Under the pieces are notes generated by a model. It was not told the DNA's origin. It searched no databases and saw nothing but the letters and a program-made list of their open reading frames with translations. Made by a program: the position numbers and the translations under genes. 64,000 nucleotides of DNA. It comes from Minisyncoccota bacterium. GTDB taxonomy: Bacteria; Patescibacteriota; Minisyncoccia; Phycocordibacterales; UBA1006. This document shows positions 32,919 to 64,000 of the stretch, piece by piece (the first letter of the stretch is position 1; every line of letters begins with the position of its first letter). Where the stretch lies: assembly GCA_036405175.1 (NCBI GenBank), contig DASWYC010000002.1, positions 57,892 through 121,891 on the forward strand, written 5' to 3'.

Positions 32919-32989
32919 TTGCGGAGGTCCGAATCGAACGGACATCCCAGGGTTATGAGCCCCGTGAGTTACCTTTACTCCACTCCGCG
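32919..32989 (-). tRNA. initiator tRNA-fMet (anticodon CAT)
   Basis: Hand-folded cloverleaf. C1·A72 mismatch, A11:U24, three consecutive G:C pairs at 29-31:39-41, T-loop TTCGATT. No CCA encoded. Confidence 0.8.
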
Positions 32990-33484: not shown

Positions 33485-33558
33485 TGTCAGAGGGCGGACT
33501 TGAACCGCCGACCTGAGGTTTATGAATCCTCCGCTCTAACCAGCTGAGCTACACTGAC
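33485..33558 (-). tRNA. elongator tRNA with CAT anticodon (tRNA-Met or lysidine-type tRNA-Ile2)
   Basis: Hand-folded. D-arm GCTCAGCTGGTTAGAGC, anticodon loop TTCATAA, T-arm GGCGGTTCAAGTCCGCC (Ile2-like in E. coli), C11:G24. Confidence 0.75.
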
Positions 33559-57469: not shown

Positions 57470-57523
57470 TATCTAAAGCGTAACACAAAAAATATAACCG
57501 AACGAATCGGTTATATTTTCTTG

Positions 57524-57595
57524 AGGCGTGAGCGGGAATCGAACCCGCGCATATCGGTTTTGCAGACCGCTGCGTTTCCACTTCGCCATCACGCC
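57524..57595 (-). tRNA. tRNA-Cys (GCA)
   Basis: Hand-folded. Acceptor GGCGTGA/TCACGCC, anticodon loop CTGCAAA, T-arm GCGGGTTCGATTCCCGC. A terminator hairpin (57490..57520) lies downstream on the minus strand. Confidence 0.8.
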
Positions 57596-57619
57596 GTTAA
57601 ACTAGTGACCTAGTTTTTG

Positions 57620-57701
57620 TGCCCAGGAAAGGACTTGAACCTTCATACCTCGCGGTGCTTGCTCCTAAGGCAAGTGCGTCTACCAATTTCGCCACCTGGG
57701 C
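57620..57701 (-). tRNA. tRNA-Leu (TAG), class II with long variable arm
   Basis: Hand-folded. Acceptor GCCCAGG/CCTGGGC, anticodon loop CTTAGGA, 13-nt variable arm. Confidence 0.8.
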
Positions 57702-58465: not shown

Positions 58466-58538
58466 GCGCTAATAGCTCAGTCGGTAGAGCAGCTGCCTCT
58501 TAAGCAGACGGTCGAAGGTTCGAGCCCTTCTTGGCGCA
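58466..58538 (+). tRNA. tRNA-Lys (CTT)
   Basis: Hand-folded. GCGCTAATAGCTCAGTCGGTAGAGC..., anticodon loop CTCTTAA, T-arm GAAGGTTCGAGCCCTTC. Confidence 0.85.
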
Positions 58539-58560
58539 CATAATATAATAGATAGTACAA

Positions 58561-58786: not shown

Positions 58787-59374
58787 ATGACTCAAAAAGT
58801 ATTCGTTGGTATTGATGAGGTTGGTCGCGGACCGATTGCCGGATCGGTGGTGATCTGCGCATATGTTGTTGCAACTAGCATGTATCAAGAATTTTGCCGC
58901 ACGGCGCAGGGAATCAATGATTCAAAAAAACTTTCATCAAAAAAGCGGCAAGCGTGGATTGAGAAAACTAAAAATAGTGGATTCTCTATTCTTAAAGAAA
59001 AGTCAGCCGCAGAAATAGACGAATATGGAATTTCATATTGTCTCACAAAAAATATTGAAGAAGCGCTCCAAGAAATTGAACTACAAGGATATGAAATTGA
59101 AAAAGTATTTTTGGACGGCTCGCTGAAAGCGCCAGAAAAGTATTCTCAAGAAACAATTATTAAAGGGGACGAGTCACAGCCGCTTATCTCCATGGCTTCA
59201 ATTGTTGCAAAAGAATATCGGGATGATTATATGAAAAAGCTTGGCGCTCAATTTCCAGAATATGGATTTGAACAACATATGGGCTATGGAACCAAGCACC
59301 ACTACTCAAAAATCCTTGAAAATGGGGTTATTTCTACAATCCACCGCCTCAGCTTCCTTGCAAAGCTCCTCTAG
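58787..59374 (+). CDS. rnhB: ribonuclease HII
   Basis: N-terminal GIDEVGRGPIAGSVV catalytic motif. Confidence 0.9.
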   Translation: MTQKVFVGIDEVGRGPIAGSVVICAYVVATSMYQEFCRTAQGINDSKKLSSKKRQAWIEKTKNSGFSILKEKSAAEIDEYGISYCLTKNIEEALQEIELQGYEIEKVFLDGSLKAPEKYSQETIIKGDESQPLISMASIVAKEYRDDYMKKLGAQFPEYGFEQHMGYGTKHHYSKILENGVISTIHRLSFLAKLL

Positions 59375-59421: not shown

Positions 59422-59613
59422 ATGGTAAACCGAATGCGTCATACAAAAAGCCATACCGCAAACCGTCGTTCTCACCACGCTCTTAAGGAGGTTCATCAGT
59501 CTAACTGTGCTAACTGTGGCGCTATCAAAAAAGCTCACAACGCATGTCCAACCTGTGGAATGTATCGTGGAAGAATGGTATTAAAATCACGTGCTGCGGT
59601 TGTGGTACAATAA
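59422..59613 (+). CDS. rpmF: 50S ribosomal protein L32
   Basis: Basic N-terminus RRSHHAL and a CxxC...CxxC zinc ribbon (CANCG...CPTCG). Confidence 0.8.
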   Translation: MVNRMRHTKSHTANRRSHHALKEVHQSNCANCGAIKKAHNACPTCGMYRGRMVLKSRAAVVVQ

Positions 59614-59670: not shown

Positions 59671-60597
59671 ATGTCCCAACGTCATCTTGCTCGTTCTCTC
59701 GTTATGCAAGGGCTCTACGCCCGAGATTTTGCCTTGGATCAAGGTGAAGAAGAGTGTTTTAATACACTCATGTACACTGTTAATGAATATGCTAAAGGGA
59801 TGGATAATCCGGAATTCGTATACGATCTTTATCGTAATATCATCAGAAAAATTGCCGTACTTGATGAAGTAATTCAAAAAGCTGCGCCGCAATATCCTAT
59901 TCAAACTATTTCAGGAGTTGACCGCAATGTGATGCGCATTGGGCTTTATGAGCTTTTGTTTGGTGACTATGATCAAGTGCCACCAAAGGTTGCAATCACT
60001 GAAGCTATTGTGCTTGCAAAAACATTCGGTGGAGAAAATTCAAATAAATTTGTGAACGGAGTACTTGGAACAATTTATCGTGAACTTGGTGAGCCACAGA
60101 AAGATCACAAGCCTGAAGAAAAGAAAGATGTGGTTGATGATGCAGATTTGCCGGTGCTTAAAAAAGCTGGAGGATTTATTTACACCGTTGAAGATGGCAT
60201 GATTTATGTTGTGCTTGTTCATGATATCTTTGGATTCTGGACGTTTTCAAAAGGTGGACAAAAAGAAGGTGAGGATCTTCGCCAAGCAGCAGCTCGTGCG
60301 CTTCAAGAAGAGCTTGGTATCACTGTAACTCCTCAGGAAGAAATTGGAATGCATAAATATACTGCTCACTCGCCAACAGAAGGAAAGGTTATTAAGGAAG
60401 TTACGTACTATTTATGTCAGGCACCAGAGCGCTCAGATTTGGTAATTGGAGACATGGATGGTGGAATCATTGACGCACGTTGGTTTTCGTTGGATGAAAT
60501 TACCGATTTGCGTATGTACAGCGATGTGGTAAAAATAGTAGGAACCGCACTGGAAATCATTGCTGAAAAGCATCAAGATTTAGTAAAGGCGCGCTAA
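59671..60597 (+). CDS. nusB: NusB-NUDIX fusion: antitermination factor NusB N-terminal domain (about 145 aa) fused to a NUDIX hydrolase domain
   Basis: NusB-like N-terminus LARSLVMQGLYARDF...ITEAIVLAKTFGGENSNKFVNGVLG. C-terminal Nudix box GGQKEGEDLRQAAARALQEELGI. Confidence 0.8.
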   Translation: MSQRHLARSLVMQGLYARDFALDQGEEECFNTLMYTVNEYAKGMDNPEFVYDLYRNIIRKIAVLDEVIQKAAPQYPIQTISGVDRNVMRIGLYELLFGDYDQVPPKVAITEAIVLAKTFGGENSNKFVNGVLGTIYRELGEPQKDHKPEEKKDVVDDADLPVLKKAGGFIYTVEDGMIYVVLVHDIFGFWTFSKGGQKEGEDLRQAAARALQEELGITVTPQEEIGMHKYTAHSPTEGKVIKEVTYYLCQAPERSDLVIGDMDGGIIDARWFSLDEITDLRMYSDVVKIVGTALEIIAEKHQDLVKAR

Positions 60598-60612: not shown

Positions 60613-61302
60613 ATGATCAATACGACCGCACTCGAGAAAATTATCGGAACAAAGATTAAGGATCAAGATCTCTATACTCAGGCATTTACGCACCGTTCGT
60701 TTATTAATGAACATCCTCATTTGGGGCTTTCGCATAATGAACGTCTTGAGTTTTTAGGTGATGCTGTTTTGGAATTAGTGGCAACTCATGCGCTCTTTTT
60801 ACAATATCCAAAACATCCAGAAGGGCAATTAACGGCCTTTAGAAGTGCGATTGTTCGCACGGAATCTATTTCAGAAAGTGCTCGTGAAATTGGTTTAAAT
60901 GATTTTCTTCTCCTTTCAAAAGGTGAATCACGTGATACAGGGAAGGCTCGTGACTATATTTTGGCAAATACCTATGAGGCGTTGATTGGTGCAATTTACT
61001 TGGATGCCGGCTATGAAGCTGCATCTGCGTTTATTAAAAACACTTTGCTTCATAAAGTTGAAGGGGTAGTAGAAGGAGGATTATGGCGCGATCCAAAATC
61101 ATACACGCAAGAGAAAGCGCAGGAGCAATTTAATGTGACACCAATGTATAAAAGTCTTAAAGACGAAGGGCCTGATCACGATAAAATATTTACCGTTGGA
61201 GTATTCTTTGGTGAGAAAGAGGTTGCGCGTGGGGTAGGAAAGTCTAAACAAGATGCCGAGCAGGCTGCGGCACGCAAAGCGATTGAGATGTTTAATTGGT
61301 AA
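60613..61302 (+). CDS. rnc: ribonuclease III
   Basis: Signature ERLEFLGDAVLELV and a C-terminal dsRBD. Confidence 0.9.
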   Translation: MINTTALEKIIGTKIKDQDLYTQAFTHRSFINEHPHLGLSHNERLEFLGDAVLELVATHALFLQYPKHPEGQLTAFRSAIVRTESISESAREIGLNDFLLLSKGESRDTGKARDYILANTYEALIGAIYLDAGYEAASAFIKNTLLHKVEGVVEGGLWRDPKSYTQEKAQEQFNVTPMYKSLKDEGPDHDKIFTVGVFFGEKEVARGVGKSKQDAEQAAARKAIEMFNW

Positions 61303-61370: not shown

Positions 61371-61886
61371 ATGAAACATAGAATACTTAAGCTTCGAGTT
61401 GTCGTCCCAGGGAATATAAACCTGAATACTCTTATTCCAAATACAATGATGAAGTTGGAGAAAAAACAAAAGAAGAAGGGTGTTTATGCATATGGTAGCT
61501 CACTCCTCAGTAAGCCTGCAGTGCCAAAGGGTTTATTTCCAGGCAAAACCTACAAGGTGATTATCATTTCTCGAGAAAGTGTTGCCGTAAATGAAGACTC
61601 AAGTAAGCTGTATTATCAGGGTCAAGAATACCTCTGGTTCGGGGCTCATGGGTTCTGTATTCTGGCGAGTTTTTTATCAAAAAAGATGAAATCTAAAATC
61701 GGAGAACAGGAAAGATTAATATCTTTTGGAGAAAAGATGCCATATGAAACTTTTGATGAAACAAAAGTGGATAACAGGTTGGCTGCAATGTATGTTACGA
61801 CTTCTCGTAATATTTTCCAATTTGTTATACCTGAGTGCGGAAGTAATCAAAGAAGGGACATGCTGGTTGCTTTTAGGCCTATTTAA
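61371..61886 (+). CDS. hypothetical protein
   Basis: 171-aa ORF between rnc and smc, followed by a long hairpin (61890..61928). Confidence 0.3.
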   Translation: MKHRILKLRVVVPGNINLNTLIPNTMMKLEKKQKKKGVYAYGSSLLSKPAVPKGLFPGKTYKVIIISRESVAVNEDSSKLYYQGQEYLWFGAHGFCILASFLSKKMKSKIGEQERLISFGEKMPYETFDETKVDNRLAAMYVTTSRNIFQFVIPECGSNQRRDMLVAFRPI

Positions 61887-61956: not shown

Positions 61957-64000
61957 ATGACCGCGCTCAAACGCCTTGAAATGGAGGGTTTTAAATCATT
62001 TGGAAAGAAAGTTATCCTCCAATTTAACACACCTATTACGGGTGTTGTTGGGCCTAATGGGTCAGGAAAATCAAATATTGTGGAGGCATTCCGCTTTGTG
62101 TTTGGAGAACAATCAATGAAATCAATGCGTAGCGATGCGGGAGCAGATTTGCTTTTTCAAGGTGCAGGTACCAAAGCTACAGAGGCTTACGTATCAATTA
62201 TTTTTGAAAATGTTTCAATTAAAAACAAAGCACTCCTTTCAGATATTAGTGCGCTGTTGGAAGGTGATGAGTTGGAAATCAAACGTACTATTACATTGGA
62301 TAAAGGTTCACAGTATTTTATTAACGGAACAAATGTGCGTCTTAAAGATGTGACGGCATTGGCTGCTGCACTTTCTTTGGGAATTGGAAGTCATCATATC
62401 ATTTCACAAGGTGAGGCGGATAGGATTATGTCTGCAACGGCACGTGAGCGTAAGCTCATGATTGAGGATTCTCTTGGGTTGCGCATCTATCACATTAAAA
62501 TCAAAGAGACTGAGAAAAAGTTGGATCAGGCACTGATGAATGTGCGTGAGTTGGCAGCAAAAAAACAATCAATCATTCCAATCTTTAATGATCTTAAAAA
62601 ACAAGTTGAAAAGATTGAGTTGGCACAATCACTCAGAACAGAATTACAAACGGCGGCATCAGTGTATTTTTCATTATTAGAAAAAAGTTTGTCCGAGGAG
62701 AGCAAAAAGAACTCAGAAGAGTATGGTGTGATTTTGCAGGAGCTTGCAAAAGTTGAACAGGAAAAATCAATCAAAGAAGAATCACTTATTGCAAAAAAAA
62801 GCAGCATGACCAAGCGGGTTACGAATGTTGAACTTGAAGAATCAATTGAACAACGCCGTAATGATATACGGAATTGTGAACGTGATAGTGATGCGCTTAC
62901 CATGAAAATTGATTTTGCTATGAGAGAGGCAGAAAAGCTTGTAAAAAAAATGACCCATCAAAATCATATTCACTACACAATTTCTCATGAAGAATATGAA
63001 GTATTTCAGTCTGTTCTTAAGCACATTGAACAGGCCTCAACACTTGAGCAGATAAAAACTATTTTAAATAGTGCGGATTTTGAAACATGTAAAAAAGTTT
63101 TTAGCTCGCAGCAGGATAGAGTTGCAAAGCAGGATTTTGAAATTGATATCCAGAATTATCGTGATGAGGCAACGCAGTTGGAAGAACAAAGAAATGCATT
63201 AACAGAAAAGTTGCGTGGACTTCAGGCGGCATATCAGGATTTGATTAATCAAAAAAAGCAGGATGAGCAAGCCTTTGTTGAAAGTTTTTCTCAGATTGCA
63301 GATGATGAACGTGCGGTGATGCAGTTACAGCAGCGCGTAATGGAGCTCATGCAGCGCAAAAATATGTTGGATATGGCGCGTAGTAACGTGGCACATAAGC
63401 AGGAAGAAATGAATACCTTTAAAGAGTATATTGGTGCATATGTTGATCTTGCTCAGGAGATAAACAATGACGATGCTCAAAAGTTTACCGGTAAAGAACT
63501 GGGTGCACTTAAGCAGCAGTGTGAACGTTTGTGCTACAAAATTGAAGATATGGGAGGTGGAGGTGGCGGAGATGTGATGCATCTGTTTGAAGAAACTCAA
63601 AAAGAACTTGATGTTATTGCAGGACATAGTGATGATACAAGTCGTGCCGTTGATGAACTTCAAAAGATAATTGCTGACTTGCAGGAATCACTCAAACAAG
63701 AATTTGAAGAAGGACTAGAAGCGGTAAATAATTCGTTCAAGCATAATTTTGTAACCCTCTTTTCTGGTGGTGATGCACGTATTGTGATATTGAAGAGTGA
63801 GGATGAGGACGGCGTGTCTGAGGGAATTGATATTGACGTTGCGTTGCCTAAGAAAAACATTACCTCACTCGCAATGCTTTCAGGAGGAGAGCGTGCGCTT
63901 ACCTCGATTGCGCTATTGTTTGCACTCTGTTCGTTGACTCCGCCACCATTCTTAGTGCTCGATGAAACCGACGCTGCACTTGACGAAGCAAACTCAGCAC
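61957..64000 (+). CDS. smc: SMC-family chromosome partition ATPase with short coiled-coil and no recognisable hinge (3' end beyond window)
   Basis: N-terminus LEMEGFKSFGKK...GPNGSGKSNIVEAFRFVFGEQSMKSMRS. C-terminal head ...LSGGERALTSIALLFAL...FLVLDETDAALD only about 640 aa later. Open to window end in frame. Not in the ORF track because no stop falls inside the window. Confidence 0.8.
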   Translation, partial: MTALKRLEMEGFKSFGKKVILQFNTPITGVVGPNGSGKSNIVEAFRFVFGEQSMKSMRSDAGADLLFQGAGTKATEAYVSIIFENVSIKNKALLSDISALLEGDELEIKRTITLDKGSQYFINGTNVRLKDVTALAAALSLGIGSHHIISQGEADRIMSATARERKLMIEDSLGLRIYHIKIKETEKKLDQALMNVRELAAKKQSIIPIFNDLKKQVEKIELAQSLRTELQTAASVYFSLLEKSLSEESKKNSEEYGVILQELAKVEQEKSIKEESLIAKKSSMTKRVTNVELEESIEQRRNDIRNCERDSDALTMKIDFAMREAEKLVKKMTHQNHIHYTISHEEYEVFQSVLKHIEQASTLEQIKTILNSADFETCKKVFSSQQDRVAKQDFEIDIQNYRDEATQLEEQRNALTEKLRGLQAAYQDLINQKKQDEQAFVESFSQIADDERAVMQLQQRVMELMQRKNMLDMARSNVAHKQEEMNTFKEYIGAYVDLAQEINNDDAQKFTGKELGALKQQCERLCYKIEDMGGGGGGDVMHLFEETQKELDVIAGHSDDTSRAVDELQKIIADLQESLKQEFEEGLEAVNNSFKHNFVTLFSGGDARIVILKSEDEDGVSEGIDIDVALPKKNITSLAMLSGGERALTSIALLFALCSLTPPPFLVLDETDAALDEANSA

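Follow-up and report, generated by a model that had tools for sequence, protein, structure and literature searches.

A NusB–Nudix fusion protein of Patescibacteria with an eroded Nudix box and a conserved nucleotide pocket

RESULTS

The nusB gene of a Minisyncoccota bacterium encodes a two-domain protein

The DNA analysed here is a stretch of 64,000 nucleotides (nt) from a Minisyncoccota bacterium (contig DASWYC010000002.1), referred to throughout as the window. Its gene for the transcription antitermination factor NusB encodes a protein of 308 amino acids (aa), in which a NusB domain is joined to a Nudix-fold domain of the type found in hydrolases of diadenosine polyphosphates (ApnA; Ap4A is the tetraphosphate). 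Across the family of such fusions, catalytic residues have disappeared from the Nudix box on many occasions, the window protein being one example, while the residues that correspond to the nucleotide contacts of the ApnA hydrolases are close to invariant. Judged by this pattern, what the domain conserves appears to be binding, and not hydrolysis. The parts of the gene, with the evidence that defines each, are as follows.

59671..60597, + strand: nusB–nudix fusion gene, a single unbroken open reading frame (ORF) of 308 aa plus stop; both Pfam domains above cut-offs
59671..60090, + strand: NusB domain, aa 1-140, all-helical (PF01029, TIGR01951, alignment to solved NusB, AlphaFold2)
60091..60165, + strand: hinge and charged linker of variable length, aa 141-165 (AlphaFold2 predicted local distance difference test, pLDDT; column conservation)
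60166..60540, + strand: Nudix-fold domain, aa 166-290, ApnA-hydrolase type (PF00293, domain profile, Foldseek)
60220..60252, + strand: strand before the box, H184-D185-x-F187-G188-x-W190-T191-x-x-K194 (each named residue at least 98% conserved in 200 members)
60253..60321, + strand: Nudix box, aa 195-217, degenerate, with K198 and A210 in place of acidic residues (sequence reading, column statistics)
60298..60300, + strand: codon GCG for Ala210 at the position of the 'RE' glutamate (sequence reading; Ala also in P0002 and P0003, Glu in P0004)

An original prediction, made from the letters of the window, had read this ORF as a NusB half followed by a NUDIX half and had proposed a profile search as a check. 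Both families were found above their curated Pfam cut-offs: PF01029 covers residues 7-137 (96 bits against a cut-off of 23.1) and PF00293 covers residues 177-281 (51.7 bits against 21.1). The NusB half also passes the NCBIfam nusB equivalog TIGR01951 (102.9 bits against 88.35) and matches the solved NusB proteins of Thermotoga maritima (2.1e-17), Escherichia coli, Aquifex and Mycobacterium tuberculosis end to end. Near its N-terminus, R4, H5, R8 and an aromatic residue at position 16 are conserved. The 'ENS' of the NusB half (aa 122-124, 60034..60042) has Asn here as in the family consensus, 'GGENS', and aligns with the 'AENS' of PDB entry 3imq. This Asn would be the equivalent of D118 in E. 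coli NusB, the residue altered in the nusB101 allele (D118N), which is said to increase BoxA affinity.

The AlphaFold2 model of the fusion, built on a 43-sequence alignment (overall pLDDT 87.5), has a NusB domain with helices from residue 2 to 139 (pLDDT ~90) and a beta-rich Nudix fold from residue 162 to ~300 (pLDDT around 90). Linker residues 143-154 are disordered in the model (pLDDT <50), and the predicted template modelling score of 0.56 means that no fixed packing between the two domains is predicted. The hinge that follows G140 (E141-P142-x-K144) is at least 97% conserved, and the linker after it varies in length and sequence. The protein ends ~20 aa past the Nudix fold, and NusB and NUDIX were the only domains detected.

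The fusion is the normal form of NusB in a large clade

The window protein (P0001) occurs in identical form on 7 contigs, under the NCBI name 'transcription antitermination factor NusB [Candidatus Paceibacterota bacterium]', and the same 308-aa ORF is present in three close relatives from three different samples. The original prediction had called for a survey of nusB lengths in related genomes. The best 120 homolog clusters, drawn from NCBI, JGI, ENA and Logan assemblies, all lie between 290 and 328 aa at 45-50% identity, with both Pfam domains in all but one; NusB proteins of 140-144 aa were found in related lineages. When one genome was scanned for each species, a relative turned up in at least 596 of them, although one of the two patterns used falls in the NusB half, so that not every one of these genomes necessarily carries a fusion. 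The best 80 of these were matched from query residue 1 to ~300, in all 80 by one high-scoring segment pair across both domains. Their lineage names are Paceibacterota, Nomurabacteria, Campbellbacteria, Giovannonibacteria, Zambryskibacteria, Tagabacteria and Parcubacteria. When 1.84 billion cluster representatives were searched without an index, 94 proteins matched at E<=1e-30; at the level of 50%-identity clusters, representatives with the full-length fusion number about 55, with identity down to 28%. These data show that the nusB–nudix fusion is the normal NusB form across a large clade of the ultra-small Patescibacteria (the Candidate Phyla Radiation, CPR), comprising Paceibacterota/Parcubacteria lineages.

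The fusion could have been an artefact, in which a chimeric assembly, a frameshift or a missed stop joined separate nusB and Nudix hydrolase genes; the original prediction had named such an error as what would overturn it. On one metagenome contig (L081) nusB and nudix are indeed called as separate genes, and the representative search contained a few Nudix-only proteins. The L081 'split' comes down to one in-frame TAA at the codon of the invariant Tyr136 in a frame that is otherwise continuous, and the other Nudix-only matches examined (P0247 and P0234) are contig-edge fragments. The hinge, GEPxKD in consensus, is conserved, the window protein recurs unchanged on its 7 contigs, and the fusion is unbroken in 80/80 of the best species genomes and in three independent samples. 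The artefact reading is effectively refuted, and we give it practically no chance of being right.

Several proteins were considered as stand-alone copies of the Nudix domain and rejected: P0263, also considered as a split gene pair, because of an in-frame TAA inside an intact fusion; P0247 and P0234 because they are cut off by contig ends; P0174 and P0192 because both begin within the NusB C-terminus. No true stand-alone copy was found among the Nudix-only candidates examined. The TAA in L081 (L081:542-1459) reflects either an error in sequencing or a nonsense allele; gene callers split this fusion into 'NusB' and 'NUDIX', an example of how one fused gene can come to be annotated wrongly as a pair.

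Two observations concern the taxonomic edges of the family. Many third-party-annotation bins that carry the Paceibacteria-type fusion (L002-L009 and many others) are titled 'uncultured Candidatus Saccharibacteria bacterium', and the homolog P0005 bears the label 'Planctomycetota bacterium'; such names seem to be generic or the result of mis-binning, and not evidence for the fusion in those groups. The most divergent fusion, P0243 (28% identity; L088:4001-4900, GCA_054047225.1, JBPLFY010000016.1), comes from a genome of ~25% GC and, when read under translation table 11, contains two in-frame TGA codons exactly at the invariant Trp190 and Trp271, where the deposited protein has W at both. Judged from these codons, UGA appears to be read as Trp (code-4-like) in this organism, which also has MurJ, MreB, trigger factor and MscS.

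The fused domain groups with the ApnA hydrolases

A profile of the Nudix domain alone (alignment A2) matched, in order, Chlamydia CT771 (5.9e-11), Thermus Ndx1 (1.3e-10), the Aquifex Ap4A hydrolase (3e-10), the Caenorhabditis elegans Ap4A hydrolase (5.5e-9) and human NUDT2 (2.7e-7), with the diadenosine polyphosphatase Rv2985 of M. tuberculosis ranking between the last two. Foldseek placed the Aquifex Ap4A hydrolase (3i7u) first, with a TM-score of 0.88 and a root-mean-square deviation of 2.1 Å, followed by the Nudix domain of NrtR (3gz8), mycobacterial MutT1, Ndx1 and CT771. By sequence profile and by predicted fold, then, the fused domain is a member of the ApnA (Ap4A/Ap6A) hydrolase branch.

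All specific Nudix equivalogs in NCBIfam (RppH, MutT, NudE and others) score far under their cut-offs; the RppH models reach 16-23.5 bits against cut-offs of 116-139, the best being 23.5 against 118. Matches of the NudC/NADH-pyrophosphatase type are weak (NUDT12 at E 5.6e-4 in the profile search, NudC at rank 46 in Foldseek), and no (p)ppGpp hydrolase was found among the profile and fold matches of the domain. The original prediction had suggested that the domain removes a nucleotide signal or cap. Its mention of Ap4A or a cap pointed to the right branch, members of which also act on RNA 5' ends: NUDT2 removes 5' phosphates from 5'-triphosphorylated RNA (PPP-RNA) (PMC8616924). Removal as such is unsupported, given the residue changes described below for the window protein and for about half of the family, and specificity for ppGpp or an NAD cap finds no support in the nearest relatives.

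Catalytic residues of the Nudix box have been lost repeatedly

The 23-mer that the original prediction had called a canonical Nudix box, GGQKEGEDLRQAAARALQEELGI, is present at residues 195-217 and lies in register (G195-x5-E201-x7-R209-A210-L-Q-E213-E214-L-G216-I), but it departs from the complete box GX5EX7REUXEEXGU in having R209-A210 instead of R-E. The position that is usually acidic in the 'GGxxE' motif is Lys198. In NUDT2 the corresponding 'RE' glutamate, E58, coordinates metal, and the E58A mutant is without PPP-RNA phosphatase activity (PMC8616924). The window protein (SPECIFICALLY) thus carries at A210 the natural equivalent of E58A, with K198 as the removal of a second acidic residue. 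Within the window's clade, R-A is found in the window protein, P0002 and P0003, and R-E in P0004, an ortholog of 78% identity with an intact box.

To place these changes in the family, five catalytic box residues (E6, R14, E15, E18 and E19) were scored in 200 distinct members. All five are kept in 106/200; the other 94 are without at least one. Retention is lowest for E15 (136 members), followed by E18 (162), R14 (180), E6 (185, corresponding to E201 of the window protein) and E19 (193, corresponding to E214). Independent subsets gave similar proportions, the five residues being intact in 70/121 and in 36/80 species representatives. On a neighbour-joining tree computed without the box columns, from which the number of losses can be read approximately, at least 45 state changes are required and the inferred ancestral state is box-intact. 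The expectation with shuffled tips is 66.7 +/- 3.7 changes, indicating that the losses are many and scattered, though not random. The glutamate of GGxxE decays together with the box, being present in 100/106 intact members versus 41/94 degenerate ones.

Column statistics agree with this picture. Conservation of 98% or more is reached at 18 positions of the domain outside the box but at none of the 23 within it, and by conservation the catalytic positions rank between 24 and 58 of 125. In the window's clade, the ratio of non-synonymous to synonymous substitution rates (dN/dS), taken from a protein-guided codon alignment in which dS is near saturation and the values are therefore rough, is 0.10-0.17 for the Nudix domain and 0.23-0.38 for the box segment. 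The Nudix domain is thus shown to remain under purifying selection after the loss of box glutamates.

As a control, the closest stand-alone enzyme family, related to Thermus Ndx1, was measured in the same way. Its box is intact in 109/111 members and in 50/50 of a subset filtered at <=60% identity, whose mean pairwise identity of 0.41 makes it more divergent than the fused domain; its seven signature positions rank 1-7 of 119. Since the Ndx1-like control keeps its box, the erosion is specific to the domain fused to NusB.

The nucleotide pocket is conserved in members with a degenerate box

Outside the box the domain tells a different story. In the strand before it, H184, D185, F187, G188, W190, T191 and K194 are each conserved at 98% or more in the 200 members, and in 94/94 of those with a degenerate box; W190, K194, Y230, K242 and Y283 are conserved at 98-100% across the family. 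The 94 degenerate members also share Y230, G265, W271, F272 and Y283 without exception; their pocket residues as a set are 99-100% conserved, and their non-box identity is 0.57, compared with 0.60 in intact members.

Many of these residues have counterparts in the ligand site of Ap4A hydrolases. Profile alignment to the C. elegans enzyme pairs W190 with W32, K194 with K36, K242 with K83, W271 with W109 and Y283 with Y121, so that K194 and W190 correspond to the phosphate-contact residues of the 'W-T-P-P-K-G' motif. The enzymes of Plasmodium, human and nematode share a ligand scheme in which a His, the 'PKG' Lys (Pf K48/Hs K42), a Tyr of loop 5 (Y87/Y82) and a Lys (K94/K89) hold the P1 phosphate, and the adenine is stacked between the loop-5 Tyr and a second Tyr or Phe (Hs F128) (PMC4734340). 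Motif register to these ligand residues leads to K194, Y230, K242 and Y283 through the pairs 'NEY-IA'/'LNY-VA', 'K-QVTYFLA'/'K-TVIYWLA' and 'L..Y.D'/'LAQFKE'. Because the invariant residues match the phosphate and adenine contacts of Ap4A hydrolases, the alignments indicate that a nucleotide-binding pocket is what selection preserves in the fused domain.

The fusion occupies the nusB slot of a conserved gene block

The genes around the fusion are listed below.

58787..59374, + strand: rnhB (RNase HII; PF01351), upstream of rpmF, seen in 32/80 species loci
59422..59613, + strand: rpmF (ribosomal protein L32; PF01783), 5' of the fusion in 77/80 species loci
60613..61302, + strand: rnc (RNase III; PF14622, PF00636, PF00035), beginning 15 nt past the fusion stop
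61371..61886: ORF of 171 aa, located between rnc and smc, without a match in Pfam or PHROGs
61957..64000, + strand: smc (partial, leaves the window), frame open from 61942, Met at 61957, '...GPNGSGKSN'

The rpmF...nusB-rnc-smc neighbourhood described in the original prediction is therefore present, as rnhB, rpmF, the fusion, rnc, the 171-aa ORFan and an SMC-like frame; SMC_N is annotated at the position orthologous to the window smc in two relatives, L085 and L086. An rnc gene lies 3' of the fusion in 80/80 species loci and also in L088, the locus of the most divergent fusion. No terminator-like site was found on the + strand between 58600 and 62100, and a promoter scan around the operon gave matches at chance level; the scan is consistent with co-transcription of the fusion with rnc and is otherwise uninformative.

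In related lineages a short NusB (144 aa in L084, 140 aa in L089) fills the same slot between rpmF and rnc. No Nudix gene was found in the flanking sequence examined around these short nusB genes, and the GEPxKD hinge is absent from the short NusB P0184. The stop of the short nusB overlaps the rnc start by 11-20 nt (L084:513-1026, L089:4001-5123). The tight coupling of nusB to rnc is accordingly independent of the fusion, since it is also present in lineages without the Nudix domain. No second NusB or Nudix relative was found within the window. The equivalog-level score, the shared slot and the absence of a second relative in the window together argue, over the 64 kb of genome covered, for orthology with housekeeping nusB and for the view, held already in the original prediction, that the fusion is the syntenic, housekeeping-type nusB of this organism and not a paralog.

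In L085 and L086 smc begins only 63-67 nt past rnc, versus the 171-aa ORF that lies between rnc and smc in the window. Because this gap is so short in the closest relatives, the ORF region can be described as an insertion of roughly 600 nt that is specific to the lineage. Shortly before the rnhB-rpmF-nusB-rnc block, on its upstream side, the window contains tRNA-Cys(GCA) and tRNA-Leu(TAG) on the - strand (57523..57701) and tRNA-Lys(CTT) on the + strand (58466..58539). Two further tRNAs lie near 33 kb on the - strand (32919..32989 and 33485..33558).

DISCUSSION

A proposed tethered nucleotide-binding module on NusB

NusB acts with NusE/S10: the two bind BoxA RNA in the leader of the pre-rRNA, and NusB associates with RNA polymerase during elongation. 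On the conservation data, the explanation that we favour as a whole, with our confidence evenly balanced, is that the Nudix domain would be a tethered nucleotide- or 5'-end-binding module on NusB that is hydrolytic only in some lineages. The domain would have been selected to bind a purine nucleoside polyphosphate and not to hydrolyse it. While NusB and NusE/S10 hold BoxA RNA on the nascent pre-rRNA beside the polymerase, the tether of ~25 residues would let the Nudix domain reach either the transcript 5' terminus, as a 5'-triphosphate or a nucleoside-tetraphosphate (Np4)-type cap, or a free ApnA or nucleoside triphosphate (NTP) ligand. If the 5' end is bound, the leader could be held in the complex by that end during formation of the 16S flanking stem on which the co-encoded RNase III acts; if a free ligand is bound, levels of nucleotides or alarmones could come to influence the function of the Nus complex. 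Where the box is intact, the ligand would probably be cleaved as well. In the genome studied here it would most likely be bound and hydrolysed little or not at all; judging from its residues at 198 and 210, the window protein probably binds the ligand and has little hydrolytic activity or none.

Published work offers points of contact for this scheme. In a passage of PMC4807359, Nus factors are proposed to tether BoxA to RNA polymerase so that the 16S flanking stem can form for RNase III, and the same passage reports, citing Bubunenko 2013, that rnc mutations suppress nusB defects. Np4 caps occur in bacteria and are removed by the Nudix enzyme RppH (PMC8833179, PMC7044304). A reader of the 5' end or of ApnA/NTP is the best account of the fusion because a nucleotide pocket, a tether of this length and an invariably adjacent rnc are found together. 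A more specific form of the proposal makes the domain a dedicated reader, within NusB, of 5'-triphosphates, Np4/ApnA-type caps or free Ap4A-type alarmones, which would gate the rRNA antitermination and maturation complex, with catalysis as an optional reset that many lineages dropped; this we offer as a tentative conjecture, somewhat on the doubtful side.

Alternative explanations

The Nudix domain might instead be an active tethered hydrolase, which would strip pyrophosphate or an Np4A- or NAD-type cap from nascent RNA that contains BoxA, or would break down free Ap4A, and so couple antitermination to catalytic removal of a signal. True ApnA hydrolases are its nearest relatives, NUDT2 in the same branch dephosphorylates PPP-RNA, the removal of bacterial Np4 caps by a Nudix enzyme provides a precedent, and the ancestral box is inferred to have been intact, as it still is in 106 of the 200 members. 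Such an activity may operate in box-intact lineages, but it fits poorly with the window protein, where Ala stands in the place at which NUDT2 is inactivated and Lys at GGxxE, and with the family-wide pattern: close to half of the members are without at least one catalytic residue after at least 45 independent changes, purifying selection persists, and the box is the fastest-evolving part of a domain whose stand-alone counterpart keeps it almost without exception. We therefore judge a general role as a hydrolase to be unlikely. That catalytic residues are dispensable would also suit a purely structural subunit, in which the Nudix fold serves as a protein-protein module of the antitermination complex without any nucleotide ligand. 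There are known Nudix domains that have no enzymatic role and serve in protein interaction, and SuhB, an inositol monophosphatase, is integral to the NusB-containing rRNA antitermination complex. What the family holds invariant, though, are the residues of the Ap4A-hydrolase phosphate and adenine pocket (W190, K194, Y230, K242 and Y283); with E201 and E214 also retained in most members, a ligand site fits these data better than a new protein interface, and AlphaFold2 predicts no fixed contact with the NusB domain. A structural role without ligand is accordingly a distinctly improbable explanation.

A further possibility is that the fusion is an accessory NusB-like protein, while a separate canonical nusB elsewhere does the housekeeping. 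NusB-like domains do serve as targeting modules in other enzymes, such as RsmB, to which the NusB half has weak matches. The equivalog score and the occupation of the rpmF-nusB-rnc slot by the short NusB of related lineages speak against a paralog, as does the absence of a second NusB relative in the window; moreover, the NusB half is the more conserved half of the protein (dN/dS 0.03-0.13 in the window's clade). We consider a paralog very improbable.

The binding-module explanation has to be held against several points. About half of the family has a complete box, and there hydrolysis may remain the main function; elsewhere, unusual residues could compensate for the lost catalytic ones. The loss count and the dN/dS values are approximate in the sense given above, and the inspection that bears on a second nusB covers 64 kb of genome. 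The Ap4A-hydrolase residue equivalences come from profile alignment and motif register, not from three-dimensional superposition. The human sequence numbering and part of the C. elegans numbering agree with the residue numbers in PMC4734340. Finally, what the domain reaches may be an RNA 5' end, a protein partner or a free nucleotide.

Comparison with known systems

Compared with ordinary NusB (TIGR01951/PF01029), the N-terminal 140 aa of the fusion align end to end with the solved proteins and lie in the same genomic slot; the difference is the C-terminal Nudix domain on its disordered linker after the conserved GEPxKD hinge. Among Nudix proteins, the ApnA hydrolases (3I7U, the Thermus Ndx1 Ap6A hydrolase 1VC8, CT771, the C. 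elegans enzyme and NUDT2) are the best profile and fold matches and share the W-T-x-x-K-G motif, the loop-5 Tyr, the Lys and the C-terminal stacking Tyr; the fused domain differs from them in its NusB partner and in its eroded box (106/200 intact, as against 109/111 in the Ndx1 control). RppH, a Nudix enzyme that acts on RNA 5' ends, would be a functional analogue if the fused domain were catalytic, but with scores so far below the RppH cut-offs the fusion is not an RppH ortholog.

Each element of the proposed module has a precedent. NrtR likewise joins a Nudix ligand sensor, a top fold match of the fused domain (3gz8), to a nucleic-acid-binding domain that controls transcription; its partner is a DNA-binding winged helix and its ligand ADP-ribose, whereas the fusion has an RNA-binding NusB and an ApnA-hydrolase-like pocket and is without the C-terminal winged helix. 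CF Im25 (NUDT21), in which the catalytic glutamates are replaced, shows no detected hydrolysis and binds Ap4A with a Kd of 2.4 uM; it is likewise a non-catalytic Nudix-fold subunit in an RNA-processing machine, that of eukaryotic pre-mRNA 3' processing. It differs from the present protein in being eukaryotic, in acting at 3' ends and in having no fusion to an antitermination factor, and it is absent from the listed sequence and fold matches of the fused domain. SuhB of E. coli, too, is an enzyme-fold protein in a NusB-containing complex for rRNA transcription and maturation, but it has an inositol monophosphatase fold and is a separate polypeptide, unlike the fused Nudix domain. RsmB/Sun offers a precedent for a NusB-fold domain joined to an enzyme-fold domain that acts on rRNA. 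There the NusB-like domain is a diverged paralog with a C-terminal methyltransferase, whereas the fusion passes the nusB equivalog and carries a Nudix domain.

Significance

No description of a NusB–Nudix architecture was found in the literature searched, which included a 2017 survey of the Nudix clan in which NusB goes unmentioned. The source databases name the fusion proteins only 'NusB', so that the second domain is hidden. What is new is a clade-wide fusion of two known families with a tendency towards a pseudo-enzyme, and not a system of a categorically new kind. With catalytic residues lost again and again beside a frozen pocket, the family also provides a clean case, from nature, of the change from enzyme to binding module.

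Which targets Ap4A-type alarmones have in the cell is still a matter of debate, and the covalent attachment of such a domain to a Nus factor provides a concrete, testable candidate. NusB is a core and near-universal part of the machinery for rRNA transcription and maturation, and its standard form in a clade of hundreds of species has an Ap4A-hydrolase-type domain and is always encoded beside RNase III. This points to an undescribed input, through 5'-end chemistry or through dinucleoside-polyphosphate or NTP levels, into rRNA synthesis in extremely reduced genomes. If the domain does read 5' ends or alarmones, the fusion would be a nucleotide-sensing Nus factor without a described counterpart, in a major bacterial radiation.

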